This document shows positions 9,741 to 30,885 of a stretch of 64,000 nucleotides of DNA, piece after piece. The DNA is from an uncultured Eubacteriales bacterium (GTDB taxonomy: Bacteria > Bacillota > Clostridia > Oscillospirales > Oscillospiraceae): positions 2,245,591 to 2,309,590 of the forward strand of contig OW818648.1 in NCBI GenBank assembly GCA_942492735.1, written 5' to 3'. The notes under the pieces are model-generated. The model was not told the origin of the DNA. It saw only the letters and a list, made by a program, of their open reading frames with translations, and did no database searches. A program made the position numbers and the translations under genes. Position 1 is the first letter of the stretch. Every line of letters starts with the position of its first letter.

Positions 9741-11768
9741 TCAGCGTATCGGCATATACGGCTTGTAAGGCTGTACTTTATATATCGCATCAGCAATAAT
9801 CTTCGCCAGGATGGGAGAACCGGTGCTGTTCGGATGAAAACCGTCTTTCCAAAAGTAATCGCTTCTGTCAAGACTGACATCATACCAGTTGGCGACTGTT
9901 GTATTGTCGTATTCGGCGGCAATTTTCGTCAGCGTACTGTTGACCGCATCACACCAGGATCTCGGCACCTGTGTGTTGACAAAGACGATCTTTCTGTCAC
10001 TGCCGATCAGTTCAATCAGCGCGCGCATATGCGCTTCGGATACCGTTCCGTTGGATCCGAGCTCAATAACAACGGTTGACCACAGTTTGTTTTGCGCTAT
10101 CAATTCACTGATAATATTTTTCGCTTGATAGAACTGTCTGCCAACTTTAGCGTACATGTACATATTGGGATAATACTCCTGCAAGCTCGGGGCGATGTCG
10201 ATCGCTATCGAGTCGCCGATGACTGTGATGCAGAGGTCGCTCGGCGTTATGACTGCTGGTGCGCTATCAGGTGAAGCATCGGAGGCCTCTGGCGATGGGC
10301 TTGCTGTGGGCGGCTCCGGACTATCTGTTGGGTTCGCCGGACTGCTCGATGGAGAAGCCGAGGATAACGATGTATCCGTCGACGGACTCGTTGTCGGCGA
10401 TGGGCTTATTGACGGCGGCGGACTTGTTGTCGGCGCCATGCTTATTAACGGCGGCGCTGAAGAGGCTTCCGCATTATTTTGAGGCGTAATAATCATCTGC
10501 GAGGGTAAAGCGCTAAGTTCGTCCAAGCCTGAATTCGGCACAGCCTGTGCATTGAGAAAACCGGCGCCTGATACCAGTACCAGCGTGATTACCAGCAGAG
10601 CGGCCGTTTTTTCCCACCAACGCGTATGCAGGCAGCTCGAACAAAAATCACGGAAAGAGCTCTTTTTGAAGGATTTGATGATCTGACTCTTGCGAATCGG
10701 CATTTCTATAAGGTAATAAGAGACCGTTGCCAGCAGAATAGTCGCGGCAACCTGACAGATGCTCAGTATCACATTCAGTTTATTTGATGGCATCATTGTA
10801 TTCGAAATGATAATCACGGGAAACTGCCATAAATAAACGCCGTAGGATATTTTGCCGATAAATCGCAGCGGCCTTAAGCCAAAGAATTTTCCGATGACCG
10901 TGGTGGGACTTACAACTGCTGCGATGAGCACGCAAGAAGCGATGGAGAAAACGAACATGCCGCCGCGGTAAAGAAAATCGTCATACTGCGTCATATAGTA
11001 ACACATAAATATGATGCCGAAAAGCGCAATGAAACCAGCGATACTCGATATGAGTCGCGTATTCCTTTTTTGCATCGCTTCCGTAATCTTTTTGCTCGGA
11101 AAGGCGAACGCCAGACATGCGCCGAGCAGCAGGGAGAAAACACGGGTATCCGTGCCATAATAGATGCGGCTTGGGTCGAATCCCGGCTGATAGAGCACCG
11201 CCATGAGTGCACCCGATATAACAGCGGCGACGGCAATAACCGTGATCTTAATCCAGTTCTTTTTTATGAACCGCTGTAACAAGAGCATCAAAAAAGGCCA
11301 AACGAGATAAAACTGCACCTCAACGGCAAGCGACCAGAAGTGATTTAGAAGAGAAGGTGTCGCAAAAGAGGTGAAGTACGGAATGTCGTTGAATATGTAC
11401 CACCAATTACTGGCGAAAAACATAGCCGGCAGAAACTCGGATTTCAAGTTCGCAAAGAGGTCGGGGCGAAAAACCGTGACATAAGCAACAAGGCATATCA
11501 GCAGAAAAAACACACTTGGCAGGAGTCTTTTCCCACGCCGGATAAAGAAACTTTTCAGATTGATTTTGTTGTCTTTTGCCCACTCAGTCTGCAGTATATC
11601 GGTGATCAGATATCCTGAAAGCACAAAAAACAGCGTCACGCCTAGAAAACCGCCGGGGACAAACGGCAAGCCCAAATGATACGCAATAACCGCAAATACA
11701 GCTAAAGCCCGGAGGCCGTCAAGCCCGGGCATGTAAGAATTTTTTTGAATCGTTATATCTGTCATCAA
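9741..11768 (-). CDS. oatA: OatA-like O-acetyltransferase: acyltransferase-3 membrane domain, Pro/Ser/Thr-rich linker, C-terminal SGNH domain
   Basis: About 10 transmembrane helices with an acyltransferase-3 pattern, a low-complexity PSPTTSPS linker, and a C-terminal SGNH domain (VIGDSIAID…KDGFHPN). This matches the peptidoglycan O-acetyltransferase OatA architecture. Confidence 0.75.
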   Translation of the reverse strand: MMTDITIQKNSYMPGLDGLRALAVFAVIAYHLGLPFVPGGFLGVTLFFVLSGYLITDILQTEWAKDNKINLKSFFIRRGKRLLPSVFFLLICLVAYVTVFRPDLFANLKSEFLPAMFFASNWWYIFNDIPYFTSFATPSLLNHFWSLAVEVQFYLVWPFLMLLLQRFIKKNWIKITVIAVAAVISGALMAVLYQPGFDPSRIYYGTDTRVFSLLLGACLAFAFPSKKITEAMQKRNTRLISSIAGFIALFGIIFMCYYMTQYDDFLYRGGMFVFSIASCVLIAAVVSPTTVIGKFFGLRPLRFIGKISYGVYLWQFPVIIISNTMMPSNKLNVILSICQVAATILLATVSYYLIEMPIRKSQIIKSFKKSSFRDFCSSCLHTRWWEKTAALLVITLVLVSGAGFLNAQAVPNSGLDELSALPSQMIITPQNNAEASSAPPLISMAPTTSPPPSISPSPTTSPSTDTSLSSASPSSSPANPTDSPEPPTASPSPEASDASPDSAPAVITPSDLCITVIGDSIAIDIAPSLQEYYPNMYMYAKVGRQFYQAKNIISELIAQNKLWSTVVIELGSNGTVSEAHMRALIELIGSDRKIVFVNTQVPRSWCDAVNSTLTKIAAEYDNTTVANWYDVSLDRSDYFWKDGFHPNSTGSPILAKIIADAIYKVQPYKPYMPIR

Positions 11769-12202
11769 ATATTTTCCTTATTAAACAAACCGCCGTCTGT
11801 ATCATATTTCGTCACTATTCTACTAGACTTTCACCAAAGAGGAAAGTATTAATTTAAGAAATAATGAAAAAATTTGAAAGCCAAATAATGCATTGCTGTA
11901 ACGCCATAGAAAAAAGGCCTGACGCTGCATTAAGCATCGAGCCTCTTTTGAATAATTGACTGTCGTTTCCATTATATGATGTCGTCTGAATCTTTGTGCA
12001 TGGGTCAGTATTGATGACGTGTCTCAATGCCCCAAATTTGTAATTGGAGAATATTGTTTATTGCACGGATGCGACCAGCTGTCTTTGCGCCGTTCACCAG
12101 AGGCGGATATTGAGCAATATAGAGCAAATTTGACATATTATATTGCATATTGACTTCAGTTCGATTATACTAGTAACAAATTGTAACAACTTGGTGATTT
12201 AT

Positions 12203-13435
12203 ATGAAACTGATATCCTCAAAAAGGAAAAATGTAATATTCGCATGGCTGCTGACGTTCGCCCTTGTTATTGGCATGGGCTTTACGCCATTTGCGACGTA
12301 TGCCGAAGCCGTCAGTAAATCAGAAATAAATGCGCTGAAGAAGCAGCAGGAACAACTCGCGGCGGAAAAGGCCGAAATTCAGAAACAGGCGGATGTAGTC
12401 AACGGCCAAGTAGCTTCTCAGACAGAAAAACTAACCATACTGACTGTAAAACTCGATGTTACGAATCAGGAGATCGAAAATCTATCCCAACAGATCGGTA
12501 TATACACGAATTCCATAGCAGAAATGGAAAATGAACTTAACAACTACGAGCTGCAGCATCAGCAATTATTGGAAAAGTATAAGCAGCGCATACGAATAAT
12601 GGAAGAAAATGGCACGATTTCATACCTCGCCATCTTGTTTGACGCAACCAGCTTTACAGATATGCTGAGCCGACTCAATTACGTTAAAGAAGTCATGGAT
12701 TATGATAACGGCCTTATCAACGATGTCCAGGCTGCCAAAGAACAGGTAACAAATGCAAAAGCGGACATGGAAGGCGAGATGGCTGACCAGCAGATCGTCT
12801 TCGCGTCCTATCTGGACAAGCAGGCTGACCTTGACGTCCAGCAAAAGGAAGTACAGACGATCCTTTCAAGCCTGACGGCAAGTTCGGCGGATTACGATCA
12901 GCAGCTTGCATCCGTCAAATCAATCCAGTCCAAATTAAGCCAACAAATAAGTACTTTGCAGGAAAAACTGGCAGAACAAGAACGCATACTGGCGGAGCAA
13001 GCTGCTGCAAAGAAGCTCGCATTGGAGAAAAACAAATGGTATGGCGATGCGGTCGGAACAGGCACAGGACAGGACATCGTGGATCTAGCCAAGAAATTTC
13101 TCGGCATTCCATATGTTTATGGTGGGACCTCTCCATCCGGCTTTGACTGCTCAGGGCTTGTGTACTATTGTTACAAGAAGTTTGGCTATTCCATCAACCG
13201 CACCGCGTCAGCTCAGGCGTTAAATGGAACAGCGGTGTCGCCGTCAGAACTCAAGGTGGGGGATATCATCATATTCTCAGAGAAAAGCGGTAACTACATA
13301 GGTCACTGCGGTCTTTACATAGGGAACGGACAGTTCATCCATGCGCCCCATACCGGTGATGTCATCAAAATATCGAGCCTTTCGCAAGCTTATTACAAGA
13401 ATCACTTCTGGGGAGCCAGACGGATTATTAAGTAA
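12203..13435 (+). CDS. CwlO/PcsB-like peptidoglycan endopeptidase (coiled-coil N-terminus plus C-terminal NlpC/P60 domain)
   Basis: Signal peptide, about 280 aa of heptad-rich coiled coil, then an NlpC/P60 catalytic domain (GFDCSGLVYY…HCGLYIGNG…HAP). The ATG at 12203 has a GGTGA ribosome-binding site; the track's alternative start is 12143. Confidence 0.75.
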   Translation: MKLISSKRKNVIFAWLLTFALVIGMGFTPFATYAEAVSKSEINALKKQQEQLAAEKAEIQKQADVVNGQVASQTEKLTILTVKLDVTNQEIENLSQQIGIYTNSIAEMENELNNYELQHQQLLEKYKQRIRIMEENGTISYLAILFDATSFTDMLSRLNYVKEVMDYDNGLINDVQAAKEQVTNAKADMEGEMADQQIVFASYLDKQADLDVQQKEVQTILSSLTASSADYDQQLASVKSIQSKLSQQISTLQEKLAEQERILAEQAAAKKLALEKNKWYGDAVGTGTGQDIVDLAKKFLGIPYVYGGTSPSGFDCSGLVYYCYKKFGYSINRTASAQALNGTAVSPSELKVGDIIIFSEKSGNYIGHCGLYIGNGQFIHAPHTGDVIKISSLSQAYYKNHFWGARRIIK

Positions 13436-13528: not shown

Positions 13529-15285
13529 CTAAAACAAGTAATTTTCCTTCAGATTGAACTGACTGATAAGGTTTTCCAACATCTGAGACTGGCTGGAGAG
13601 TTCTTCGCTGGCTGCAGCACTTTCTTCAGCTGTTGCAGAGTTGGTTTGTACGACGGTTGCAATCTGTTCGACACCGATGTTGACTTGCTTAATGGAATTT
13701 GCCTGTTCTTCGCTGGTATCTGCAATATACTGAATAATGTCTGACAACTTCTCGGTGTTCTGAACCACGACATCCAGAGATTTTGCGGTTTCGGATACAA
13801 TGACAGTACCCTGTTCCACCGCTTTTATGGATTTATCAATAAGGGTAGCTGTCGTTTTTGCACTTTCCGCAGATTTTCCAGCCAAGTTTCTCACCTCGTC
13901 GGCTACAACCGCAAAACCTTTACCTGACGAACCTGCTCTTGCTGCTTCAACCGCAGCATTCAGAGCAAGTATATTTGTCTGGAAAGCAATATCATCAATG
14001 ACTTTTATGATTTTACCAATCTCCCTGGACGTATCACTGATTTCGTTCATGGAGGTAATCATCTGTTGCATTTTTGCTTTGCCATGTTCGGTGGCATTGC
14101 TGGACTCTATGGAAATTTGTTTAGCGCTCGCCGCACTTTCTGCTGTTTTAATAACCTGGGAAGAAACCTCGTTAATAGTTGCAGAGAGCTCCTCAACGGA
14201 ACTTGCTTGTTCGGTTGCTCCCTGGGCAAGTGCTTGTGCCCCAGATGCAACTTGATCTGAACCTGTTGCTACCTGATCTGCGGCAACGCTGATTTGTGAA
14301 AGTGTTTGGTTTAACATGTCAGAAGTATTCGTTAAGGCTACTTTAATTTTGGCAAAATCTCCTTCGTAGGAGTTTTTGAAAATTAAGTCCAGATTACCTC
14401 TCCCTAATTCATCCAATAATTCCGACACCTCGTCGATGTAGTTGATGTACGCCTTGAGTCTGTTGGTGAGAAGACCCATGGAGCGCGCCAGCTGACCAAC
14501 CTCGTCCTTGCTGTTAATGTCAATTTTTGCGTCTAGATTCCCTTTGGCAAGATCTGAAGTCACACGATTAAGCTTTCCGATTGGCACAACGATACTAAAC
14601 ACAATGTATAACCCGAGTGCAACAGCAATTACGAGCGATATCACGATGATTATCGTCAGCTCGACAACAGACTTTTGAATGCTGCTTTCTACAAGAGATT
14701 TTTGCTGTGCAATGTAGGAGTCAATAAAGTCGGTATAGTTGCCTGTGCCGACAACCCAGTCAAAAGGCTTAAAAAAGAGAGAATATCCTCTTTTTGGCAG
14801 GGGCTCGGTTTCACCTGCTTTTGGAAAAGCGTAATCAGTATATCCTCCCCGCTTAACGCCTGTTCCTTAATAGCTTCAATAAAGGCGAACCCGTTGGCAT
14901 CCTTTGCGTTGGCGCGATTGGTCCCCTCGGTTTCTTTTCCCAATAAAACGACGCATGTTCCGTCGGTTTTATCTGCCCAAAAATAACCGCTTTCACCATA
15001 TTGCATATTTCGAAGTAGCGTAGCAGCAACGATTTCGGCTGCCGCCTTGGTATAAGCACCGGCTAAGCTTTGATCATAAACATTTTGCAAGACGGATATC
15101 GCAGATTCTGTTTGCTCCTTAATGTTTTTATCAAAATCATCACGAATTTGCTTGTCCAGCGTACTGAGAGACAACGTGTTTTGGGTATTCATCTTTTGAA
15201 TAGATATTATTGCGACGAATGAAATGGAAATAACGACAATGAGCATTAGAATAGCCATTTTTGTTTTAATCTTCAATGATTTCAT
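13529..15285 (-). pseudogene. Methyl-accepting chemotaxis protein (Cache-like sensor, HAMP, MCP signalling domain) split by a 1-nt frameshift near 14850
   Basis: ORF 14689..15285 carries the N-terminal transmembrane helix and Cache-like sensor. ORF 13529..14644 carries the second transmembrane helix, HAMP and the MCP domain. The downstream frame stays open back to about 14870 and reads …[40 protein letters not shown], which is Cache C-terminal sequence. The two frames meet at a cccc/gggg homopolymer at about 14846-14856. Confidence 0.55.
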
Positions 15286-15745: not shown

Positions 15746-18700
15746 CTAAATCAGTCCTGATTTTTGCAGTAGATGCTGAACCATCACAGCGACCTCGGCG
15801 CGCGTCACATAGTCCTTCGGGGATAGCGTCGTTGCGCTTGTTCCGGTTGTGATACCCGCCTCGAGGCAGGCTGCAGCGCTTTGTCTCGCGTAGCTCGAAA
15901 CGTCCGCCCCATCGGTGTACTTTAAAAGAAGCGCGCTTACTTCGCTGTCTGTCAGGCTTATGCGAAGCCCGGCTAGCTTCATCGCATTGGCGATAATCGT
16001 CATCGCCTGTTCACGGGTAATCAGGTCATTCGGGCCGTAGCTTGTGCTGTCATAGCCGGATATGAGCGCATAGGCTGCCGCGGTGTCGACATCGCCGTTA
16101 AACCAGTCGGTCAGCGTTACATCGTCGAAGCTGCTTTCCGCTGTGCCCTTGGCAAGACCCAATGCTCTGACGATAATTGCCGCGAACTCTGCTCTCGTAA
16201 TGCTTCTGTCTGGCTCGAAGATGCCGTCACCGATTCCCGCGACGACCATTCTCGAGCCCATGTCGTTGATTGCCGTCTTTGCCCAGTTGTCTGTCACATC
16301 CGTAAACGTCACAGGGTTCCAGATGACGGAGTAGGTGCTGTTTGTCAGGCTGTTTATCTTTGCGTAATACTTGCCGTCGATCACAACGATCTGCGTCGGC
16401 ACATGGCGGAAGGTTCCGTCTGCGTTGAGTACGATGCCGGTTGTGATCTTGGAGGGGTCTACGCCGTCGGGTATGGCGATCGTGCGCTCCACATAACCGT
16501 TAAATTTGGATATTGAAATCGTCTTGTCACCGCTTGTGCAGGTGATTTCAAACTCAACGGGCTTTACAACAATTTGATAGCCGCCCTGGTTCGCCGTATC
16601 CTCTATAATCTTAACCGTATCCGCCGGCGGCTCGGCTATCTTGACGCTCACGTTGATGTCCTTGAGCTCGACCTGAGAGCCAAGCAGCGCCGAAACAGCG
16701 TCGATGTTGATCTGTGATGCCGGAAGTGTGTAGGTAACGGTTTCGGTTTTGATTTCGAGGGTTGCCTCTTTAGTTTCCATATTCTTGATTGTCTGCCCGT
16801 TCAGCTCGCCGACAACAACATCGGAACCCATGATGCCAGGGAGGGTGACCGTCGGCTTCTCGCCGCTGCTCTCAAGTAACTTATCCAGCTTCGTATCGTC
16901 AACGGTTATGGTCGTCGTTGTCTGTCCGCCGCTCGTCGTGGTGCTGGCTGTTCCCGCGTCCTGCCGCACGCCGTTGACTTCAACGACCGCGCTGCCAGAA
17001 GGCGTGCTGTCGTAGACGACCTGCGGCGTTACTGTAACCGTAACCGTCTTTGCCGCCGTCATAGTGCCGTCGTATGCCGTTATCTCCAATACATAGCTGT
17101 TATTCGTGTTGGTGTCGGTCGGGGTTCCGTATGATGGCGCTGTTCCAAAGGTTACGACGCCGGCAACGATGCTGAACTTTGCCGCGTCATCGCCGCCCGA
17201 AATGCTCCATGTAATCGCGCTTCCTTCCGGGTCCGAAGCCGCCGGGGTGAAGGCTGCCGTGCTGCCCTCAATAACGCTTATTGCGACACTTGTGGAAATC
17301 GCGGGTGCTTCGTTGACATTTGTGACGGTGATAGCCAAATCTTTTGAAGCAGTAAGATTTCCTCCGTCTTTTGCCACAACCAGAATGTTGTATACATTGT
17401 CTGCCCCGATGTCCTTTTTGTCCTCATAATTCGGAACGGCGTTGAAGGTTACTTTTCCGTCGCTGTCGATACTAAAGAGCGTTTTGTCCGCTCCGTCAAG
17501 GCTCCACGTAACCGTATCGCCCGCGTCAGGGTCTGTCCGTGTCGCGGTGTAGACCGTCCCTGTACCGTTCTCAGCAAAGCTAGCCGGATCTCCCGATGTG
17601 ATGCTCGGCGCTTCGTTGACCGCAGTGATTGTTATTGTTGCGGTTATGGCTGCGGAATTGACTGTTCCATCATAGGCCTTCCATGTGAAGCCGTCATTTC
17701 CGCTGTAATCGGCGGTGGCTATATAGGTAAATGTTCCGTTGGCATTAAATGAAAGTGATCCGTGGCTCGGACCAGTCCACAAGACATAGCTGAGCGTATT
17801 CCCCTCAGCGTCAGACGCATATGACGTCAGACTGTCGTTCAGCACGGTGTCCTCATTCGTTGTAAAGGTATGAGCCGTCACCGTGGGCGTGTCGTTGACG
17901 CCATTGATGGTGATGGTCAGGGTATTCCCCGTCGTGCCGGCGGAATCGGTCGCCTCAATCGTGAAGATATCGGGTACGGCTGCCGTCTGTTCATTCAGTA
18001 TCGCATTGCTGGTGGGAACATAGACGTAGGAACCGTTGCTTTTCACATACAGCGTACCGTAAATGCTGGCCTTGGAGACATTATAGGTAACACTGTCAAT
18101 GACAGTATCGCCCAATGTTCCGCCGTTGATTCCGTATCCTGTAATAGAGCCGGAATTCGCCGTTGCATCTATAGTTCCCATTACGCTGGGGAAAGTATCG
18201 TTAGCTGCCGTATCATTATAACTATGGCTGGCCGGATTAACCGTTGGGCCGCTGACTACTTTAACCGTAATCAGCAGCGCGTTACTGTTTCCGGCTGTAT
18301 CATCTACGTATACAAGCACAGCATAGCTGCCTGCGCTCAGCCCACCGGCGTTATTAATCAGCAAATTGGCTCCGGAAATTGTGAACTTGCTCATGTCGGC
18401 GCCGCCGATTAGTTGCCATCTGAGCGAATCGGTAAAGCCGGAGATTGTCGTTGCATCTGTTGCCGTCAGCGCACCCACAGTTGCACCATTTGTCGCCGCC
18501 GTCGTGCTTATGGTCAGAGTTGAGGGTGTTGTAACAGAAGGCGCTGTCGTATCGATAACAACAAGCTTAGTGCCTGCTGCCGACACATTTACAGCCGTAT
18601 CAGTCAAAGTGGCTGAAATTGTATAGCGGCCTGCCGCGTATGTATGGGCCGGAGCTGTGAAGGTGCCGGCTGCAATGGTGCCGGTAGCGTGAGCGGTGCC

Positions 18701-21694
18701 ATCACCGAAGTCCAGATCGACGCTTGCGCCCGTTTCGCCGCTGACGGTGATTGTTTGAGAGGGCGTCTTTGTAACGCCGTCATTATTGAGGTTTCCAATA
18801 TCCGAACTCATAGTAAGCGTCGGCGCAATGGGGTCGGTACTGTCCTGAGTAATTGTAACGCTTGCAGGTGCGCTATCATTGCCAACAGCATCCGATGCTA
18901 TAACAACAAGCGTATTTAAAGCATTCTGATTCAGATTCACACTTATGGAATAGCTGCCCCCGGTAGCAGTTCCGGTTGCTGTTACATTGCCGCCGGTAAT
19001 AGTAATCGTCGCTCCAACGTCTGCCGTGCCGTTGATTATAATATTGTCTGCGTTGATAGTTTGATTTCCTGTTGTAATAATCGTTAGCGTCGGATTTATG
19101 TTGTCCACCGTCGCGTTGGTCGTATCTGCTGCTGTTCTTGTATTACCCGCATTGTCCCTTGCTGTCACAGCAACATTTATGTTCGTAGCGTCAACGGTTC
19201 CAGCTGTTATCGTATAGGTCGCGGTCCATGTTCCGCCAGAATTTGTCGCAGCAACGGCGGCTCCTCCGCCGAATGCGCTGAAATCGACGTTTACACCCGA
19301 TATCGTGTCAGCGTTGTTGTCGCCGCCTGCGGTGTTGTTCCACGTTGCCGTCACGGTGTCGCCTATTTTATACGCACCGCCCGTTCCGCTTGCTCCGCTG
19401 ATAGAAATGCGCGCGTCTGTCACCGTGGGTGCAACGTTGTCCACTGTCGCATTCGTCGTATCGGCTCTTGTTGTGCTGTTGTCCGCATTGTCTTTGGCAG
19501 TTGCCGATACATTTTTATTCGTGCCGTCGATAGCTCCCGCGACTATTGTATATGTAGCAGTCCATGTCCCAGCTGAATTTGTCGCAGCAACGGCGGCTCC
19601 TCCGCCGAATGCGCTAAAGTCAACGGTTACCACCGAAATCGTATCACTGTTATTATCGCCGCCCGCGGTATTGTTCCACGTTGCCGTAACGGTGTCGCCG
19701 ATTTTATACGCTCCGCCCGTTCCGCTTGCTCCGCTGATTGAAATGTTACCGTCCGTCACCGTGGGCGCTACGCTGTCCACTGCCGCGTTCGTCGTATCGG
19801 CTGTTGTTGTGCTGTTGCCCGCATTGTCAGTTGCGGTTACCGAGACATTTCTATTCGTGGTGTCGAGGGCTCCCGCGACTATCGTATATGTAGCAGTCCA
19901 TGTCCCGGCTGAATTTGTCGCAACTACTGTGGCTCCTCCGCCGAACTGACTGAAATCAACGGTTACGCCTGATATCGTATCGCTGTTATTATCGCCGCCT
20001 GCGGTATTGTTCCACGTCGCCGTAACGGTGTCGCCGATTTTATGCGCTCCGCCCGTTCCGGTTCCGCCGCTGATGGAAATGCGCGCGGCTGTCACCGTCG
20101 GAGCGACGTTGTCCAACGTCGCATTCGTTGTATCGGCTGTTGTGGCAGCATTGCCCGCGTTGTCAGTTGCGGTTACCGAGACATTTCTATTCGTGGTGTC
20201 GAGGACTCCCGCGACTATCGTATATGTAGCGGTCCATGTCCCTGCTGAATTTGACGCAGCTACGGCGGCTCCTCCGCCGAACTGACTGAAGTTAACGGTT
20301 ACGCCGGAAATCGTATCGCTATTATTATCGCCGCCTGCGGTGTTGTTCCACGTTGCCGTCACCGTATCGCCGATTTTATACGCTCCGCCAGTGCCGCTTG
20401 CTCCGCTGATAGAAATGCGCGCGTCTGTCACCGTCGGCGCAACGTTGTCCACTGTCGCATTCGTCGTGTCGGCTTTTGTAGTGCTGGTCCCCGCATTGTC
20501 CGTGGCAGTTACCGATACATTTTTATTCGTGCCGTCGATATCCCCCGCAACTATCGGATATGTAGCAGTCCATGTCTCGGAATTATTTGTTGCAACTACA
20601 GAAGCACCGCCCCCGAATTGACTGAAATCTACAGTCACGCCTGTAATTGTAGCGCTATTATTGTCTCCAGCTGCGGTGTTGTTCCACGTTGCCGTCACCG
20701 TGTCGCCTATTTTAAACGCTCCGCCAGTGCCGCTTGCTCCGGCGATGGAAATACGCGCGTCTGTGACCGTCGGCGCGGCATTGCTGACTGTAATTCCGTT
20801 GCCGGTCAAGTCGGCAATAATGAGCGAGGCAGTGGTATTCGTATCCCAATCTTCCGCCGCGGCGAGATTATATGTAGTTCCGCCCGTTGAGCTTGTGCCG
20901 TTTTTATTCATTATCTGATTGACGGCGGCCTTGTCGAACGCGTTGAGCGTCACCGAAAAGTTGGTTGCACTGGTGGCAAACACATTACCAGAGGTAAGCG
21001 TGCACGTACTTCCACCCTCTCCGGTCAGCGTCAGTTTGTTGACAGCAATAGTGTCGCCAGTTGTCATGCCGCTGCCTGTTACTGCTAAAACGCCAGTGTT
21101 TGCATCATATGTTGCGCTCGTGATAAAGGGGGCGGCTTTTACGTCATCGATCTCAAGATCTTGAAAAACGACATACGAATCAGAAGTAAAGGTGACACTG
21201 GTAACATCGTTAAACGACGTCAGACCGGACTTCGTGATTAAGGTTTCATTCGCCGCGGTATATGGGATGCTGGTAACCATTCCGTTATAGTATACGGATA
21301 TCGTATAGCTGGGTTCTGCTGCATAATGATTTCCAGCAAACTTAAATCCGGTCAGATCAAAGGTATGCCCCGCTGCAACAGACACGGTAAAATCGACCCC
21401 GTTGTTTGCGTTGCGTGTTGAGCTAGCGTATATACCGGTTAAGGTAGTATTCGCATCGATGCTAAACCAGTTAGGAGTATATGCTGTTGAACCGTTAGCA
21501 AATGTAAATGTCTTGCCTTCGATGGGTCGTACAAAGCTGCCGCTTGCGGCATTAATGTCTTCGGGCGAATCATCTATAAATGTCACTGTCGTGACAATCG
21601 CCCTTGCCGGCAGCGTCAGCGCGGGCAAAAGGCAAATCACCAGCGCCAGAGCCATAAAAGTCGAGATTAGCTTTCGTGCAATTTTGGTTTTCAT
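15746..21694 (-). CDS. Giant S-layer-homology-anchored surface protein or adhesin (1983 aa): signal peptide, six tandem Ig-like repeats, cadherin-like and Ig-like domains, three C-terminal SLH domains
   Basis: The in-frame ATG at 21694 has a perfect AAGGAG ribosome-binding site and gives MKTKIARKL… plus a hydrophobic signal. There are six ~111-aa repeats (VAPTVTDARISISGASGTGGAYKIGDTVTATWNN…) and VNDTPTV/VNEAP cadherin-like linkers. Three SLH motifs follow (FTDV…NWA…, FDDV…, YTDG…). The longer track ORF that extends to 21916 overlaps the PadR gene. Confidence 0.85.
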   Translation of the reverse strand: MKTKIARKLISTFMALALVICLLPALTLPARAIVTTVTFIDDSPEDINAASGSFVRPIEGKTFTFANGSTAYTPNWFSIDANTTLTGIYASSTRNANNGVDFTVSVAAGHTFDLTGFKFAGNHYAAEPSYTISVYYNGMVTSIPYTAANETLITKSGLTSFNDVTSVTFTSDSYVVFQDLEIDDVKAAPFITSATYDANTGVLAVTGSGMTTGDTIAVNKLTLTGEGGSTCTLTSGNVFATSATNFSVTLNAFDKAAVNQIMNKNGTSSTGGTTYNLAAAEDWDTNTTASLIIADLTGNGITVSNAAPTVTDARISIAGASGTGGAFKIGDTVTATWNNTAAGDNNSATITGVTVDFSQFGGGASVVATNNSETWTATYPIVAGDIDGTNKNVSVTATDNAGTSTTKADTTNATVDNVAPTVTDARISISGASGTGGAYKIGDTVTATWNNTAGGDNNSDTISGVTVNFSQFGGGAAVAASNSAGTWTATYTIVAGVLDTTNRNVSVTATDNAGNAATTADTTNATLDNVAPTVTAARISISGGTGTGGAHKIGDTVTATWNNTAGGDNNSDTISGVTVDFSQFGGGATVVATNSAGTWTATYTIVAGALDTTNRNVSVTATDNAGNSTTTADTTNAAVDSVAPTVTDGNISISGASGTGGAYKIGDTVTATWNNTAGGDNNSDTISVVTVDFSAFGGGAAVAATNSAGTWTATYTIVAGAIDGTNKNVSATAKDNADNSTTRADTTNATVDNVAPTVTDARISISGASGTGGAYKIGDTVTATWNNTAGGDNNADTISGVNVDFSAFGGGAAVAATNSGGTWTATYTITAGTVDATNINVAVTARDNAGNTRTAADTTNATVDNINPTLTIITTGNQTINADNIIINGTADVGATITITGGNVTATGTATGGSYSISVNLNQNALNTLVVIASDAVGNDSAPASVTITQDSTDPIAPTLTMSSDIGNLNNDGVTKTPSQTITVSGETGASVDLDFGDGTAHATGTIAAGTFTAPAHTYAAGRYTISATLTDTAVNVSAAGTKLVVIDTTAPSVTTPSTLTISTTAATNGATVGALTATDATTISGFTDSLRWQLIGGADMSKFTISGANLLINNAGGLSAGSYAVLVYVDDTAGNSNALLITVKVVSGPTVNPASHSYNDTAANDTFPSVMGTIDATANSGSITGYGINGGTLGDTVIDSVTYNVSKASIYGTLYVKSNGSYVYVPTSNAILNEQTAAVPDIFTIEATDSAGTTGNTLTITINGVNDTPTVTAHTFTTNEDTVLNDSLTSYASDAEGNTLSYVLWTGPSHGSLSFNANGTFTYIATADYSGNDGFTWKAYDGTVNSAAITATITITAVNEAPSITSGDPASFAENGTGTVYTATRTDPDAGDTVTWSLDGADKTLFSIDSDGKVTFNAVPNYEDKKDIGADNVYNILVVAKDGGNLTASKDLAITVTNVNEAPAISTSVAISVIEGSTAAFTPAASDPEGSAITWSISGGDDAAKFSIVAGVVTFGTAPSYGTPTDTNTNNSYVLEITAYDGTMTAAKTVTVTVTPQVVYDSTPSGSAVVEVNGVRQDAGTASTTTSGGQTTTTITVDDTKLDKLLESSGEKPTVTLPGIMGSDVVVGELNGQTIKNMETKEATLEIKTETVTYTLPASQINIDAVSALLGSQVELKDINVSVKIAEPPADTVKIIEDTANQGGYQIVVKPVEFEITCTSGDKTISISKFNGYVERTIAIPDGVDPSKITTGIVLNADGTFRHVPTQIVVIDGKYYAKINSLTNSTYSVIWNPVTFTDVTDNWAKTAINDMGSRMVVAGIGDGIFEPDRSITRAEFAAIIVRALGLAKGTAESSFDDVTLTDWFNGDVDTAAAYALISGYDSTSYGPNDLITREQAMTIIANAMKLAGLRISLTDSEVSALLLKYTDGADVSSYARQSAAACLEAGITTGTSATTLSPKDYVTRAEVAVMVQHLLQKSGLI
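19100..20790. repeat. Five to six tandem copies of a ~333-bp coding repeat inside the adhesin gene (near-identical at the DNA level)
   Basis: Near-identical strings recur at a 333-bp period (for example ccgcccgttccgcttgctccgctgat, gtccactgtcgcattcgtcgta). The antisense ORFs 19305..19949, 20007..20285 and 20340..20621 are artefacts of this periodicity. Confidence 0.8.
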
Positions 21695-21734
21695 TTTTTT
21701 GCTCCTTATTCTTGTTTTCGGGGCTGCTGTCATC

Positions 21735-22292
21735 TTATTTTGCGGTAATTTCCGCCTTGATTTCTTCCATAAGCATTGCGTACTCGCGGCATTTGACGAG
21801 TCCCCAGCGGTGGGCAAAAACGGCTGATTGTAGCCGTCTGTCGTCCCCGGACAAGCCAGTCTTTCCAGTGAAATTATCGTAGTTTTCGCTGTAGTTGCCA
21901 ATAAGGCGATTTTCAAACGCCTTTATGTTGCGAAGCTGCGTGTCAATCAGACGCAGCTGCTCTTTCTTGGGCAGCGCGCCCGAGAAAAACAGCTGCATCA
22001 GAAACATGTCCCGTGAAATAAAGTCGTTCACGGAGTTTTTCGCGCCTGCAGTCAAGTAGGCCTCCCGCCCCTTGTCTGTGATAGCGTAAACCTTCCGGTC
22101 GACCGTTTCGCCTTTTTTAAGCTCCTTGAGCTCAACAAGCTCTTCCTTAACGAGTTTTTTCAGCGTTCTGTAAATCTGCGTCTGGTCCGCGGGCCAGAAG
22201 TATGAGGCCGACATGTCAAACAGCTTTTTGATATCGTAACCGGACAGAGGCTTCATGGACAAAAAGCCCATAATTCCATGCTCAAGCGACAA
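21735..22292 (-). CDS. PadR-family transcriptional regulator
   Basis: N-terminal winged-helix signature (HGYDIKKL…QIYRTLKKLVKEELV). It lies 40 nt upstream of the adhesin gene on the same strand. Confidence 0.8.
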   Translation of the reverse strand: MSLEHGIMGFLSMKPLSGYDIKKLFDMSASYFWPADQTQIYRTLKKLVKEELVELKELKKGETVDRKVYAITDKGREAYLTAGAKNSVNDFISRDMFLMQLFFSGALPKKEQLRLIDTQLRNIKAFENRLIGNYSENYDNFTGKTGLSGDDRRLQSAVFAHRWGLVKCREYAMLMEEIKAEITAK

Positions 22293-25969: not shown

Positions 25970-28033
25970 TTACGGCGCTGTTAACTGCACTGTGTTGGAG
26001 ACGAATTTGCCGTTTCCGAATACGTAGGTGATGGCGAAGTAATACGTTTTTCCGGATTCCAGACCTGCCTCTGCCGGAACGGTCGACCACCCCGATGAAC
26101 CGAAATCGGACAGTACGCAGATGTATCCGTCGTCGGGGTAAATCGGATTGGGGTTTGTCTCGGAAGCGACGACCTTGTAATAATGAAAGTCTTCATACGA
26201 CATTCCGTTATAAATGACGGTGCTGCCCGGTAGAGCTGACCAGTTAAACGACAGCATGCCGCCGTTGGATAGAACCGACAGCGCCGGAGATGAGAAGACT
26301 GGAGCCGTCGGGGCAGTGCAGCCCGGAATTGTGGCGGTCACTGTATTTGTGACGTATTTGCCATTACCAAAGACATATGTGACAGCGAAATAATACGTTT
26401 TCCCAGCTTCCAAGGTCGGAGACTTATTATAATTTCCCGCAGATGGATCGACGGACCAGCTGGACGAGCCAAGGTCGGAAGCGTAATACAGGTAACCATT
26501 ATCGGGATAGACGGGTGTTGAGTCCGTGAGCGAGGCGACGATCTTATAGTAGTTAAAGTCTGTATACGTCTTGCCGTTATATGTCACGGTTCGGTCGGGT
26601 ATGGATGTCCAGCTGAAATTCAGGGTATTGCCTGACGTTGAAACATTCAGCTGGGGAGCAGCCGCGGCCGGCGCCGTGCTCGGTGATGCCTCATTGTATA
26701 AAGGAACCGTCGTACTCACGGTATTTGTTGTGAATTTCCCGTTCTCAAACACGTATGTGATGGCGAAATAGTACTTAACGCCGGGCTCCAGCGTCGGCGA
26801 CTGGTTGTAATCGGTTCCGGACGGATCTACTGTCCAGCTTGACGTGCTGTATTTGGAAACGGCCTGCAGATAGCCGTTATCTGGATAGATGGGGGTCGGG
26901 TCTGTTTCTGACGCAACGACCTTGTAGTATGAGAAATTCTTATACGTTTTGCCGTTGAATGTAACGGAAGTACCGCTTAAAGGCGTCCATATAAACTTAA
27001 TCTTACCGTTTAAGACTGTCGCCGTTAAACCGGGGGAGAAACTACCGGATGGTGAAGGCGATGGCGAGGGTGACGGTGAGGGCGATGGAGATGGTGACGG
27101 TGACGGTGATGGTGACGGTGACACGTGGACCTCGGGCGTGGTGTTCGAAGGGGTGGCGCTGGGCGGAACCGTTTCAGAGGGGGACGGTGTTGTATCTGAC
27201 GGTTTTACCGACGGCGTTGCGTTTGTTGATGGAGTTGCTTCAGCTTGCGCCGCTTCCTGCAGGAGAGGCTTCGTTTGCTCATCGAGGCTGAGTTTGCTGA
27301 AAATCTCACTGATGGTGCTGTCCTTAATCTCCTGCAAGCTCATGGCGAAACCATAATCCTCAGCAAATTTGTGCAGGAGCAGCCTTCCGATAGAAATGTT
27401 GCTTGCTTTCGCTTCATCAATAAAGCGTGAATCATCGATATAGACCGTGACGATTTCTGCCGCCTCGTTTTTTTCTGCAGACTTCAGGATTTCCCGAAGC
27501 TGTTCTTCAGCTGTTTGGTCGGTTTCGGTATTATTCGGAGCAGCCGAAATGAATAGAATGGAGCTCGCCCCTAAGAAACCGTTCGCTTTAGCAAATTCGA
27601 CAATCTTATTAATGCCGTCGTTGATTGGCTTCGTTTTCAGGTCGAGCTGGTCAAAAATCATCTGCCCTGCGGCGTTTGCGAAAACAATATCAATGATCTT
27701 GTTTTCCTTGTTGATGCTCAGTTCGATACTGGGGTTGATATCAATTGAGATGACTGCCGCGCACGTTGCGTCGAACGACCCTTTCTTGTCAAGACCGAAT
27801 ATCCCAAAAATGACACCTGCGGCGACGAGGATAATAAGGAGTGCCGCTGCAAGGGCGCGAAAATCGCTCAGACGGAGCCGACGCATAGGCGCTGAAATGT
27901 CCTTATTTGAAAATGTGACCTGCTGGCCGAGCATATATTCGTTTTTTGTTTTAATAAGGACCATATCGCAGGTTTTGGTGAAAACGTACGTTTTGCTTTT
28001 TGAAATATCCATGATCGTACCGGTATGAATCAT
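25970..28033 (-). CDS. rsgI: RsgI-like anti-sigma-I factor: RsgI_N cytoplasmic domain, one transmembrane helix, (PS)n linker, three FN3-like extracellular repeats
   Basis: The N-terminus (MIHTGTIMDISKSKTYVFTKTCDMVLIKTKNEYMLGQQVTF) fits the RsgI_N pattern. It overlaps the upstream sigma gene by 4 nt (ATGA). A SPSPSPSPSPSPSPSPSPS linker is followed by three ~110-aa repeats (…TVTYNGKTY.DF.YYK(I/V)VAS.TD.TP(I/V)YPDNGY…YYFA(I/V)TYVF.NGK). Confidence 0.7.
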   Translation of the reverse strand: MIHTGTIMDISKSKTYVFTKTCDMVLIKTKNEYMLGQQVTFSNKDISAPMRRLRLSDFRALAAALLIILVAAGVIFGIFGLDKKGSFDATCAAVISIDINPSIELSINKENKIIDIVFANAAGQMIFDQLDLKTKPINDGINKIVEFAKANGFLGASSILFISAAPNNTETDQTAEEQLREILKSAEKNEAAEIVTVYIDDSRFIDEAKASNISIGRLLLHKFAEDYGFAMSLQEIKDSTISEIFSKLSLDEQTKPLLQEAAQAEATPSTNATPSVKPSDTTPSPSETVPPSATPSNTTPEVHVSPSPSPSPSPSPSPSPSPSPSPSPSGSFSPGLTATVLNGKIKFIWTPLSGTSVTFNGKTYKNFSYYKVVASETDPTPIYPDNGYLQAVSKYSTSSWTVDPSGTDYNQSPTLEPGVKYYFAITYVFENGKFTTNTVSTTVPLYNEASPSTAPAAAAPQLNVSTSGNTLNFSWTSIPDRTVTYNGKTYTDFNYYKIVASLTDSTPVYPDNGYLYYASDLGSSSWSVDPSAGNYNKSPTLEAGKTYYFAVTYVFGNGKYVTNTVTATIPGCTAPTAPVFSSPALSVLSNGGMLSFNWSALPGSTVIYNGMSYEDFHYYKVVASETNPNPIYPDDGYICVLSDFGSSGWSTVPAEAGLESGKTYYFAITYVFGNGKFVSNTVQLTAP

Positions 28034-28773
28034 TGCGCATTCGCCCCCTTTATGTACGATTCGATATACCCTTTTAAGATTTCCATGTCGCTTTTGAGAA
28101 TCAGATAAAGTGCGATGATGTACTTTCTGTTCTTTTCGACTGTTTTTCGGCTCAGGCTGAAGCTCGATAGGATCCCTGTTATTGGGAGTCGGCCGTCTTC
28201 ACTGAGTCTCGCGGAGAGCTTTTTATCCTCAAAAAGCTTTTTGGCAATGGCTGCGCACATCGCCCGGGTATCGGTGTGCTTCGGCGCGGATAGAACAAGC
28301 TCGTCAAAAGAGATGCTGTATCCTTGAAGAGAATTCTTGAACGATAATATTTCGTCCTGAATTTCAAATCGTTCTGTGAGGAGGAGCGGGGGATGAAAAC
28401 CGGCTGGCTCATAATCCTCCTCGCGATCATCTAAGAGGGAGGAGAACGGGTATTCCACGCCGAATCGCTTGTTTCTCCTGAAGTAGTCTATGACCCGTCT
28501 GTTGATGACAAGTCCGGCAAACCCAAGAAAATTCGGGTTCTTGCTGCTGTCAAAGACGTCAATCGCCTCATTGAAGGCTTCAAGCGCAACGCTGAATTCG
28601 TCGGTTGAATCTGCTTTTCGTCCCGTCATCCGCGATACAATCGACCGTATGTATTCCCAGTATGTCTTAATCAGATATTCTCTGATCTCGGTTTCACCGT
28701 CTCTCAGGCGATCAATCAGCTCTTCCGGCTCGAGTGAAAGACATTCGCTCTTAGTAGTCTGCAACATTCTCAC
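28030..28773 (-). CDS. sigI: RNA polymerase sigma-I factor (SigI-type sigma-70 family)
   Basis: …EYLIKTYWEYIRSIVSRMTGRK…EFSVALEAFNEAIDVFD…FLGFAGLVINRRVIDYFRRNK matches the SigI region 2 and region 4 pattern. It is immediately upstream of, and coupled to, the RsgI-like gene. Confidence 0.8.
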   Translation of the reverse strand: MRMLQTTKSECLSLEPEELIDRLRDGETEIREYLIKTYWEYIRSIVSRMTGRKADSTDEFSVALEAFNEAIDVFDSSKNPNFLGFAGLVINRRVIDYFRRNKRFGVEYPFSSLLDDREEDYEPAGFHPPLLLTERFEIQDEILSFKNSLQGYSISFDELVLSAPKHTDTRAMCAAIAKKLFEDKKLSARLSEDGRLPITGILSSFSLSRKTVEKNRKYIIALYLILKSDMEILKGYIESYIKGANAQ

Positions 28774-28964
28774 CGCCTATAAAATATAAAACGTTTTATT
28801 TCAGGCCATATTATATTATTCGCACGATTCGACATTTTTTGTAGGGTATCCAGTAAAATAAATTGTAATTTAGTAAATAAACGGAAACTGGATCATATTT
28901 CCGAATGAGACCGTCCATCAAAGAGCAAGGAATATTATGAATGTTAAGCGGAATGTTATTAAGG

Positions 28965-29137
28965 AAAACGATGTTTATAGGAGAATAGCGTGAAAAATGC
29001 TTTTCCCGCCCGGAAGAAACCGATTTGGCCGCCAAAAACGGTGGCGGTCATTTTCAAAGCGGATTGTATCCGCTTGAAAACACATCGATTTTTCCTAATT
29101 ATTTGTGCCGCCGCTTAGCGGCGGAATGGGGGTTATT
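28965..29137 (+). promoter_or_regulatory. Conserved ~175-nt leader element, copy B (homologue of 24896..25072), directly upstream of ku
   Basis: See copy A. It ends at GGGGGTTATT immediately before the ku ATG. Confidence 0.6.
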
Positions 29138-29947
29138 ATGGCAGTCCAACACAGATCCGTTATTTCATTCGGCCTTGTGGCGATTCCTATTGCGATGTAT
29201 ACGGCGACACAGGACAATGATATTCATTTAAATCAGCTTCACAAGGATGACAATGAGCGTATCCGTTACAAAAAGACGTGTGCCCACTGCGGCGAGGAGC
29301 TGACGTCGGGCGATATCGTCAAGGGTTACGAATACGACAAAGGCCGGTATGTGGTGATTACCGACGACGAGATTGAAAAAATAAAGACCGAAAAAGAGAA
29401 GGCGATTCAAATTCTTCATTTCTCGAAACTCGATGAAATTTCGCCGGTTTATTATGACAAGACATATATGGCGATTCCAGAGCCCGGCGGCGAAAGAGCT
29501 TTCGAGCTTTTGAGAGCAGCCCTGATGTCCGAGCAGAAGGTGGCCATCGGCAAAACCGTCATTGGAACGAAAGATACTCTCATGGCGATCATTCCAAGAG
29601 ACGACGGGATTTTGATTACAACACTATTTTTTAGGGATGAAGTCAAAGACCTGCCAAAATCATATACAAAAACTGAGTCTCAAAAGGCCGAGCTTGAAAT
29701 GGCGCGGATGCTGATAGGCACGATGGATACACCGTTCAATCCGGAGGAATATCGCGACGAATACCAGTCAAAGCTGCGCGATTTGATTGAAACGAAGATA
29801 GCGGGCAGGGAAGTTCTCACAGCTCATACGGAGAGCGCAGGGAACGTCATCAATCTGATGGATGCCTTAAAGGCCAGTGTCAAACAGGCAGCGAAGCAGC
29901 CTGACGATTCAAATAAACAGCCTGAAAAGCAAAAGGTCATGGCATGA
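29138..29947 (+). CDS. ku: Ku protein, the DNA-end-binding component of non-homologous end joining
   Basis: …ISFGLVAIPIAMYTAT…IHLNQLHKDDNERIRYKKTCAHCGEEL…KGYEYDKGRYVV… is the Ku core. The start at 29138 has a GGGGG ribosome-binding site. Confidence 0.85.
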   Translation: MAVQHRSVISFGLVAIPIAMYTATQDNDIHLNQLHKDDNERIRYKKTCAHCGEELTSGDIVKGYEYDKGRYVVITDDEIEKIKTEKEKAIQILHFSKLDEISPVYYDKTYMAIPEPGGERAFELLRAALMSEQKVAIGKTVIGTKDTLMAIIPRDDGILITTLFFRDEVKDLPKSYTKTESQKAELEMARMLIGTMDTPFNPEEYRDEYQSKLRDLIETKIAGREVLTAHTESAGNVINLMDALKASVKQAAKQPDDSNKQPEKQKVMA

Positions 29948-30885
29948 CGGATATTTTTGGAAAAAAAGAAATTAAGCCGATGCTCATCGGCGCGACGGGA
30001 GCACCGTTTGACAGCAGCGACTATATCTTCGAGCTGAAGCTTGACGGAGAGCGGTGTGTTGCTTACCTCGACCCCGAATCCGGCACCGATCTCAGAAATA
30101 AGCGCAATATGAAAATGCTGCCCAAGGTCCCGGAGCTGTCCGATATCCACAGACAGGTCTCGGTGCGCTGCATATTGGACGGAGAACTGATTATTACCGT
30201 CGACGGCAAGCCCGATTTTTTTGAGATTCAAAGACGTTCGCTCACGACAAACAACTTCAGAATCAAGCTTCATGGCAGCCGATATCCAGCCACCTTTGTC
30301 GCGTATGACATTCTTTTTGTTGATAAAACGGAGGTCACGTCGCTGCCTCTCATAACGCGAAAAAAACAGCTTGAAGCCATTGTCACGGAAAATGGCAGAC
30401 TTGCCGTTTCACGATACATTGAAGGACAAGGCGCCGCGTTGTACAAGCTGACTGAAGAGCAGGGTCTTGAGGGGATCGTCGCTAAACACCGCAACAGCCT
30501 ATATACATTCGACAAACGGACAAAGGATTGGATAAAGATAAAAAACCTGCTGGACGACGATTTTGTCATCGCAGGCTTTATTCGGAAGGAGAAGGGTGTA
30601 ACGAGCGCCGTACTGGGACAGTATGACGGTGCAACGCTGCTTTATAAGGGACATGTAACGCTCGGTGTTTCATCAGATGACTTCAAACTGATGGAAAAAG
30701 CAGCTAAGCGCGGGACAACGCCGTTTGAGGAGATGCCTCCGGGCAATGAGGGAGCAACCTGGATAGAACCCAAACTTGTCTGCACCGTTAAATATATGAT
30801 GAAAACAGCAACAGGCTCCATGCGTCAGCCCGTCTTTAAGGGCATCCGGTATGACAAGGAACCGTGGGAGTGTACGGCTTCATAA
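29944..30885 (+). CDS. ligD: ATP-dependent DNA ligase (LigD ligase domain only; no polymerase or phosphoesterase modules)
   Basis: The FELKLDGER motif carries the KxDG adenylation lysine, and OB-fold motifs lie downstream. It overlaps ku by 4 nt. The 313-aa size equals a ligase domain alone. Confidence 0.8.
   Translation: MTDIFGKKEIKPMLIGATGAPFDSSDYIFELKLDGERCVAYLDPESGTDLRNKRNMKMLPKVPELSDIHRQVSVRCILDGELIITVDGKPDFFEIQRRSLTTNNFRIKLHGSRYPATFVAYDILFVDKTEVTSLPLITRKKQLEAIVTENGRLAVSRYIEGQGAALYKLTEEQGLEGIVAKHRNSLYTFDKRTKDWIKIKNLLDDDFVIAGFIRKEKGVTSAVLGQYDGATLLYKGHVTLGVSSDDFKLMEKAAKRGTTPFEEMPPGNEGATWIEPKLVCTVKYMMKTATGSMRQPVFKGIRYDKEPWECTAS

Follow-up and report, generated by a model that had tools for sequence, protein, structure and literature searches.

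The stretch of DNA analyzed here, referred to as the window, comprises 64,000 nucleotides of contig OW818648.1 (positions 2,245,591 to 2,309,590, assembly GCA_942492735.1) from an uncultured Eubacteriales bacterium of the Oscillospiraceae. On its minus strand it carries sigI and rsgI, which encode a sigma factor of the SigI type and an anti-sigma factor of the RsgI type whose extracellular part ends in three fibronectin type III (FN3)-like repeats. An earlier sequence-only reading of this DNA had placed sigI in front of rsgI with an overlap of 4 bp, and the same arrangement was recovered for the two open reading frames (ORFs), as listed in Table 1. At the junction, CAATGATTCAT, sigI stops with TGA and rsgI starts with ATG inside a common ATGA. 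Since the PP-loop ATPase gene on the downstream side is convergent with rsgI and the Ku gene on the upstream side, 331 bp from sigI, is divergent, sigI and rsgI form a two-gene operon. The true start of sigI is ambiguous: GTG at 28773, ATG at 28767 and TTG at 28764 each stand 3' of a Shine-Dalgarno-like GGCGGTGAG, and translation may begin at ATG 28767 or TTG 28764 instead of GTG. ATG 28767 is not conserved in an orthologous locus (L056; related loci are designated by L numbers and homologous proteins by P numbers). The inverted repeat between rsgI and the PP-loop ATPase gene lacks a T-tract and escaped the terminator scan; it is a possible bidirectional terminator.

Table 1. Features of the sigI-rsgI locus (positions are those of the window; aa, amino acids)
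Feature	Position	Strand	Basis or remark
sigI, RNA polymerase sigma-I factor	28030..28773	minus	247 aa counted from the GTG start
rsgI, anti-sigma-I factor	25970..28033	minus	687 aa; ORF, Pfam, full-length AlphaFold model
Sigma-I-type promoter of the sigI-rsgI operon, ACCCTACAAAAAA-N12-CGAATAATAT	28847..28813	minus	weight matrix; putative function
RsgI_N, cytoplasmic sigma-I-binding domain, aa 3-41	27911..28027	minus	PF12791, 32.7 bits against a cut-off of 25
Single transmembrane helix FRALAAALLIILVAAGVIFGIFGL, aa ~59-82	27788..27859	minus	hydrophobic stretch; model helix 54-78
RsgI_M/SEAL juxtamembrane domain, aa 93-263	27245..27757	minus	PF23750, 85.9 bits over aa 93-220
Asn100-Pro101 predicted autocleavage motif, within the SEAL domain	27731..27736	minus	
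Disordered Pro/Ser/Thr-rich linker, aa ~264-329	27047..27244	minus	pLDDT <50 at 264-293 and 295-328
FN3-like repeat 1, aa ~328-448	26690..27046	minus	pLDDT >90 in the full-length model
FN3-like repeat 2, aa 454-574	26312..26674	minus	copy modelled singly
FN3-like repeat 3, aa 577-687	25973..26305	minus	ends the protein
Perfect 19-bp inverted repeat GAAGAATCTCCAGGTGATC ... GATCACCTGGAGATTCTTC, 22-nt loop	25859..25918		between the convergent rsgI and PP-loop ATPase genes

The upstream protein was compared with profile and structure collections. Region 2 of sigma factors is present (Sigma70_r2, PF04542, 38.3 bits against a cut-off of 24), and the Pfam scan gave no match to region 4 (Sigma70_r4). 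The ten best NCBIfam matches are all SigI models, the best being NF006173 (E 3e-69, 233 bits). Among structures in the PDB, SigI6 (8i24_F, E 5.9e-41) and SigI1 (8i23_F, E 4e-40) align with residues 18-242, that is nearly end to end, and the isolated C-terminal domain of SigI1 (6ivu_B, E 5e-18) with residues 134-241. It can be seen that a SigI-specific C-terminal domain replaces sigma region 4 and that the K, H, D and R of its PKH.D.R stretch are kept; this stretch has been linked by a cryo-EM study to minor-groove binding at the A-tract (PMC10575876). Judged by these comparisons the upstream protein is SigI, and its placement in the SigI clade by the earlier reading is borne out.

The downstream protein, by the same kind of comparison, is the RsgI anti-sigma-I factor. 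The matches to RsgI_N, as had been proposed for the N-terminus, and to RsgI_M both exceed the Pfam gathering scores. The full-length AlphaFold model (mean predicted local distance difference test score, pLDDT, of 82) shows in order a beta-strand domain at residues 1-40, a helix at 54-78, an alpha/beta domain at 92-262, a stretch of pLDDT <50 at 264-328 and three confidently modelled beta-sandwiches; the N-terminal beta-strand domain, RsgI_N, has pLDDT >90. The periplasmic domains of RsgI2, RsgI9 and Bacillus subtilis RsgI in the PDB match the RsgI_M domain with E values from 7e-12 to 8e-5, and the deposited chains of the cleaved C-terminal part (RsgI2, RsgI9 and others) begin at the residue that aligns with Pro101, which in the case of RsgI2 is residue 1 of chain 8heq_B. 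The equivalent of D98-I-N100-P101-S102 in RsgI2 is Asp95/Asn97/Pro98/Ser99; signalling by RsgI2 requires autocleavage between this Asn and Pro, and the cleavage chemistry has been described (PMC10328401). D-x-N-P is invariant in an alignment of 26 family members, and the motif D[IVL]NP[SG] is kept in 62 of 72 RsgI-type proteins with the repeat. We predict that Asn100|Pro101, between strands beta1 and beta2 of the SEAL domain, is the autocleavage site. The linker that follows had been described as (PS)10; a linker does stand before the repeats, and the count has to be corrected, since tandem-repeat detection gives (SP)12 (72 nt, period 6, 12 copies, 27051..27122). On the strength of their domains, sigI and rsgI encode a genuine SigI/RsgI signalling pair.

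The C-terminal part of RsgI had been proposed to consist of three FN3-like repeats. They measure 111-121 residues; repeats 2 and 3 are 50-53% identical to repeat 1, 45 columns are invariant among the three, and the pattern W...YYKVVAS...YYFAITYVF.NGK is found in all of them. Every repeat is very rich in Tyr (13 Tyr in the 121 residues of repeat 2). The E values of 1e-59 to 1e-67 given by each repeat against a profile made from the three are circular figures; independent support comes from the homologues, as this profile finds 2 or 3 copies in each of the 120 listed. Repeat 2, modelled with 61 homologous repeats as alignment, is all-beta (pLDDT 94.7, pTM 0.86), and when it was compared with the PDB by Foldseek the 50 listed matches were without exception FN3 or FN3-containing (probability 1.0, TM 0.43-0.59). 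The modelled repeat is a seven-stranded beta-sandwich of FN3 topology, to which two elements are added: a TVTYNGKTY beta-hairpin leading from the Trp strand to the YYKVVAS strand, and a long conserved P.YP.DGY loop. These additions to canonical FN3 explain why the TM scores are moderate. The V.YNGK.Y hairpin is absent from many family members (short type), and the repeats of the window are of the long type. The W, P.YP.DGY and YYF motifs are invariant across the repeat family, and the linker is far less conserved.

Single repeats of the window matched no Pfam model. Among 62 homologous repeats 18 matched Pfam fn3 (best E 6.6e-6), which was the only recurrent family; whole homologues exceed the fn3 cut-off (P0129, 39.8 bits; P0137, 46.2 bits), and homologues carry precomputed annotations of PF25832 (Fn3_SaeA_2nd), some also of PF00041 (fn3). 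Membership of the window repeats in FN3 is supported by these homologues and by the modelled fold, and according to the models the repeats have the FN3 fold. The other part of the proposal, that a recognisable carbohydrate-binding module (CBM) is lacking, held as well: no Pfam CBM exceeded its threshold in RsgI and none was recurrent among the 62 repeats.

A sigma-I-type promoter, ACCCTACAAAAAATGTCGAATCGTGCGAATAATAT, is located about 75 nt upstream of the annotated GTG of sigI. It is composed of the specificity region and A-tract ACCCTACAAAAAA (28847..28835), a 12-nt spacer and CGAATAATAT with CGAA at 28822..28819. Of 17 related loci, 16 preserve the register of 25 nt from ACCC to CGAA in front of sigI, with spacers that vary in sequence. 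Using a two-block weight matrix built from 17 orthologous sigI promoters, the site scored 36.5 bits, whereas shuffled windows gave no more than 23.6, and it was the sole matrix site in the window: everything else scored <14 bits except a shifted reading of the same site. The matrix also recovered sigI promoters outside its training set (L005, L013, L051 and L056). Two consensus forms have been published, C-----AAA N13-14 CGWA for sigma-I and ACCCCC--AA N15 CGAA for Bacillales (PMC4711584), and the promoter of the window fits both. The conserved, predicted promoter of the sigI-rsgI operon is newly described here; ACCCyAyAAAAA with the 25-nt register to CGAAT makes it sharply defined and searchable in genomes.

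The earlier reading had named the adhesin gene and the OatA/SGNH cluster of the window as candidates for the regulon. This proposal is not supported by the promoter search, in which the only sigma-I site of the window precedes sigI. The adhesin gene, the Acyl_transf_3 (OatA-like) gene, the NlpC/P60 gene and two ORFs of unknown function that follow the OatA-like gene (8659..9717 and 7443..8534) have no AAA-N12-15-CGWA in their upstream regions, which score <5 bits; the region upstream of the Cache/MCP ORFs also scores <5 bits and has one generic AAA...CGAA match abutting the ORF start. The adhesin and OatA-like genes could be indirect targets. Loose promoter patterns occurred in the window in numbers near chance (4 against 2.9 expected; 14 against 8.0). 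The sequence ACCCCAATAAAAGCGTCTCAATATCCGAA at 870..898 (plus strand), which has the 25-nt ACCC-to-CGAA register and scores about 14 bits, was judged a chance match because it lies inside the 3' end of the minus-strand ORF 868..1518, is followed by no plus-strand gene and has a poor extended -10. Scanning the metagenome with TACCCTACAAAAAA-N12-CGAAT gave two matches, one in L056, which is another sigI-rsgI orthologue, and one in an unrelated context (L055) that is probably due to chance; it revealed no regulon members. When about 767 kb of related loci were scanned with the matrix, the only sites to score well beyond the sigI promoters were two in front of SLH-protein genes, in L019 and L021; the weaker sites at L002 (minus) 2270 and L019 16658 are without a CGWA core.

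To see how the repeat is distributed, 1.84 billion cluster representatives were searched with the three-repeat profile, which gave 418 clusters (50% identity level) at E <=1e-3. Architectures were counted on 246 proteins fetched from these: 72 have an RsgI N-terminus, 87 have SLH domains and 87 are of other kinds or fragments. P0007, P0014, P0015 and P0029, high-scoring homologues that have neither RsgI nor SLH domains and were considered as a separate class, are most likely truncated RsgI: the sequence of P0015 begins within the SEAL domain, and those of P0007, P0014 and P0029 begin at a repeat or within one. Two repeats are the rule in the 72 RsgI proteins (46 cases), followed by three (20), four (4), one (1) and six (1). 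The closest loci in species-representative genomes belong to uncultured Papillibacter metagenome-assembled genomes (MAGs), with identities of 64% for RsgI and 81-86% for SigI; other close loci are from Clostridiales UBA1316, Oscillospiraceae and Sporobacter termitidis. An exact-sequence look-up of the window's RsgI gave no record; judged by the best relatives, the source is probably a member of the Oscillospiraceae with ties to Papillibacter or Sporobacter. One cultured organism with a homologue is Pseudobacteroides cellulosolvens ATCC 35603 (L018; 30% identity, two repeats). With 72 or more protein clusters, the FN3-like RsgI subfamily comes mainly from uncultured Oscillospiraceae and from other Clostridia. 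By these counts the architecture is common in metagenomes, and the protein of the window adds a member to a type already known and catalogued.

The repeat is also found beside sigma factors of another kind. In two uncultured Mageeibacillus MAGs (L037 9031..11008 and L040 409..2368) a gene for an extracytoplasmic function (ECF) sigma factor, with Sigma70_r2, r4_2 and ECF matches all over cut-off, overlaps by 8 bp a gene for a membrane protein composed of a short cytoplasmic N-terminus (MFDSKYKEALENMKL...), one transmembrane helix, a Thr/Pro-rich linker and three repeats. The N-terminus of this protein matches no Pfam family and is shared by proteins of L042 and L050. The protein looks like an ECF anti-sigma factor that uses the same sensor module, a putative assignment from gene order and layout.

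In L021 (11694..13212) and L019 (16814..18319) a gene for a two-repeat SLH protein is preceded, at 60-76 nt, by a sigma-I-type promoter; both proteins pass the Pfam cut-offs for SLH and fn3. The SLH gene directly follows rsgI in L021 and is 5 kb away in L019, where the promoter is nevertheless conserved. The two SLH-gene promoters, ACACTATCAAAAAAAACGGATTTTACGAATCAGTA in L021 and ACACTATGAAAAAAATTGCAATTTACGAATGAGTA in L019, align with the two sigI promoters of these loci over the two blocks as well as over a GTAAAATAAG stretch further downstream. We regard the two SLH genes as candidate regulon members which have a module in common with the sensor. This parallels Clostridium thermocellum, where sensor and targets also share modules (GH10 in RsgI6 and in the GH10 xylanases, PMC4711584). 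For the SLH-repeat genes of L057-L060, neither sigI/rsgI within 10 kb nor a convincing promoter was found. In L059 (6691..11827) and L060 (6664..11704) a three-repeat SLH gene stands directly downstream of GH2 beta-galactosidase genes; this neighbourhood is a faint hint that the repeat family may be tied to glycans. Taken together, the SLH and ECF contexts suggest a genuine role for the repeat as an input or surface module, and at least some sigma-I systems of this type may control surface proteins bearing the same module.

We consider it probable that the locus is a self-regulated sigI-rsgI operon which works by the established RsgI pathway (PMC10328401, PMC10556640, PMC9732909) and is equipped with an FN3-like sensor. 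The cytoplasmic RsgI_N would retain SigI at the membrane, and the SEAL domain would constitutively cut itself at Asn100|Pro101, its halves staying associated. The disordered Pro/Ser/Thr linker of about 65 residues would cross the cell wall and present the three Tyr-rich FN3-like domains at the surface. There they may act as the sensor, most likely by binding a large extracellular or cell-surface polymer, for which a glycan is the first choice. Pull from the bound ligand would part the SEAL halves, a site-2 protease of the RasP/RseP type would then cleave the transmembrane helix, and the freed SigI would transcribe from ACCCTACAAAAAA-N12-CGAAT promoters, its own included. A glycan or cell-surface polymer is favoured because of the RsgI precedent, the high Tyr content, the strong conservation of the loops and the occurrence of the module on surface proteins. 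A sensor or surface role is further supported by L037 and L040, since the repeat is there the ectodomain beside an ECF sigma factor. As to whether the polymer would be external or part of the cell's own surface layer, the evidence fits both.

Several points weigh against this reading. The scores against the ten SigI models of NCBIfam are all under the curated cut-offs (233 against 287 bits for the best; 172.9 against 185 for TIGR02895), so the protein is placed as a member of the SigI family and not as an equivalog of any named subgroup. The window repeats give no Pfam fn3 match even at E 10. A second sigma-I promoter turned up neither in the window nor in +/-10 kb around the closest relatives, and the metagenome scan gave none either. 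The link to SLH targets is seen in two related MAGs only and is absent around the four other SLH-repeat genes. A ligand for the repeat family is so far a proposal, and FN3 domains in bacterial enzymes are often mere spacers.

A different explanation is that the repeats bind the cell's own envelope, which may be an SLH protein with the same repeat (by like-with-like contact), the S-layer or a secondary cell-wall polymer, and that the pair monitors and adjusts the surface layer. This would agree with the finding that the sole sigma-I-type promoters other than those of sigI that were found in L019 and L021 sit directly before two-repeat SLH genes and that their -35 and -10 blocks align with those of the local sigI promoters. 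It would also agree with the abundance of both SLH (87) and RsgI (72) proteins among the 246 that bear the repeat, and with the use of SLH anchoring by the organism of the window, which is evident because its 2056-aa adhesin carries three SLH domains. Neither an SLH-repeat gene nor a second promoter is present in the window or in +/-10 kb of the closest relatives, however, and the four other SLH-repeat genes are without a nearby sigI/rsgI or convincing promoter. Moreover, if sensor and target both bind one external ligand, a common module is to be expected just as much. We think self-surface sensing unlikely.

The same observations can be put in a wider form. The repeat, in its long form here and its short form elsewhere, may be a reusable input module of Clostridia that serves two or more unrelated kinds of anti-sigma factor, namely RsgI for sigma-I and the single-pass ECF partner, and at least some of the sigma-I versions may activate SLH proteins with the same repeat. 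In that case the circuit would sense its own repeat-bearing layer and replenish it by like-with-like contact, and would not respond to an external polysaccharide. This is a speculation that we hold to be rather doubtful as a whole.

The pair might instead sense defects of the wall as in B. subtilis, with the linker as sensor, the repeats as a bulky stopper or spacer, and a regulon for cell-wall maintenance. The predicted disordered linker resembles regions required in B. subtilis RsgI (PMC9732909), and the window contains an NlpC/P60 gene with a PcsB coiled coil and an Acyl_transf_3 gene; these cell-wall genes are, on the other hand, without a sigma-I-type promoter. Furthermore, conservation across the family is much stronger in the repeats, with their invariant W, P.YP.DGY and YYF motifs, than in the linker. 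This argues for a specific function and not for inert bulk. The repeats also occur on SLH proteins and on the putative ECF anti-sigma factor. Sensing of this kind is improbable for the present RsgI.

That the repeats are a known CBM in disguise, for example CBM5/12, and RsgI an ordinary polysaccharide sensor of the C. thermocellum type, is very improbable: the high Tyr content and a CBM_5_12 match on the VTYNGKTY hairpin (22.6 bits, E 1e-4), found also in two homologues, speak for it, but the match is under the gathering score of 26.2 bits, covers 10 of 44 profile positions in the V.YNGK.Y stretch only, and lies on an insertion that many family members lack, while single repeats have no Pfam match, the 62 homologous repeats give one CBM match (CBM_4_9, E 0.005) against 18 for fn3, and structure searches give FN3 domains, not CBM folds.

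Other genes of the window were also noted. The adhesin ORF (15746..21916, minus; 2056 aa) has three C-terminal SLH domains together with Big_6, Big_9, Big_13 and cadherin-like domains; a 185-aa ORF (21735..22292) overlaps its 5' end, so that the true start of the adhesin is uncertain. Further along the minus strand, a Cache-domain ORF (14689..15285, 198 aa) is followed after 44 nt by an ORF with HAMP and MCP-signalling domains (13529..14644, 371 aa). The two look like one chemoreceptor divided over two ORFs, which could reflect a frameshift, decay into a pseudogene or a gene that is truly split. At 9741..13435 the Acyl_transf_3 gene (OatA-like, 675 aa) is divergent from that of the NlpC/P60 hydrolase with a PcsB-type coiled coil; the intergenic region contains a -35-like A-tract block, ACGCCATAGAAAAAA, with no CGWA at the right distance. 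The Ku gene (Pfam Ku, 176.7 bits) shares 4 bp with a LigD-like ORF (29105..30885, plus, for the two); the latter looks like an ATP-dependent DNA ligase, and the pair, divergent from sigI, would serve non-homologous end-joining. Nothing related to cellulosomes is among the annotated genes of the window.

Among cases of intramembrane proteolysis gated by force or ligand in Gram-positive bacteria, SigI/RsgI systems are the best understood. To our knowledge, they are understood only for sensors made of CBMs or glycoside hydrolases, which respond to biomass, and for the disordered tail of Bacillus, which responds to the cell wall. For the window itself the present results are mostly tidy annotation. 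The FN3-like subfamily has been noted so far in one supplementary table only, and its ligand and regulon would reveal how sigma-I is used in anaerobes that are not cellulolytic. Handles for this are the defined promoter, the SLH proteins with the same repeat as candidate targets, and the occurrence of the module in a putative ECF anti-sigma factor.

The novelty implied by the earlier reading was overstated, because an RsgI of the FN3 type, a homologue of the present one, was catalogued in 2016. For Bccel_0630-0629 of P. cellulosolvens the C-terminal domain of RsgI is listed as FN3 with the predicted promoter ctgctcttaAAAatcatacttcttatCGaAcaatat (PMC4711584, S5 Table, Muñoz-Gutiérrez et al. 2016), which is identical to that read upstream of sigI in L018. 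In our literature search no paper characterising Bccel_0629/0630 was found, and nothing on PF25832 or on SaeA with Fn3. The two loci are alike in the sigI-rsgI operon, RsgI_N, RsgI_M, the homologous C-terminal FN3-like repeats and the sigma-I-type promoter. They differ in that Bccel_0629 has two short-type repeats without the V.YNGK.Y hairpin, against three of the long type here, at an identity of about 30%, and in the -35 specificity region, which is CTGCTCTTAAAAA in P. cellulosolvens and ACCCTACAAAAAA in the window.

With RsgI1-RsgI9 and SigI1-SigI8 of C. (Acetivibrio) thermocellum the pair has in common the SigI fold, the layout of RsgI_N, transmembrane helix and periplasmic domain, the Asn-Pro site, the disordered linker, and an AAA...CGWA promoter before sigI, which is autoregulated in that organism. 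The sensors of C. thermocellum are CBM3, CBM42, PA14, GH10 and GH5 with known polysaccharide ligands, whereas three FN3-like domains take their place here. Domains of seven kinds have been described as appended to RsgI-like proteins, most of them predicted to bind glycopolymers and some possibly proteins (PMC10556640). The likeness to SigI/RsgI of B. subtilis consists in the constitutive autocleavage of the SEAL domain, the disordered extracytoplasmic region and the RasP-dependent release (PMC9732909, PMC10556640), which would also apply to the present pair. The promoter of the window is likewise closer to the Bacillales form, ACCCCC--AA N15 CGAA, than are most clostridial sigI promoters. B. 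subtilis RsgI ends in its disordered region, whereas the RsgI of the window adds about 360 residues of folded repeats. SLH proteins with the repeat, for example those of Fusibacter ferrireducens and Vallitalea pronyensis (PF25832/PF00041), belong to the same repeat family, with 2-6 C-terminal copies; with an N-terminal signal peptide, SLH domains and no anti-sigma module, such proteins are surface proteins and not signal transducers, which sets them apart from the RsgI described here.

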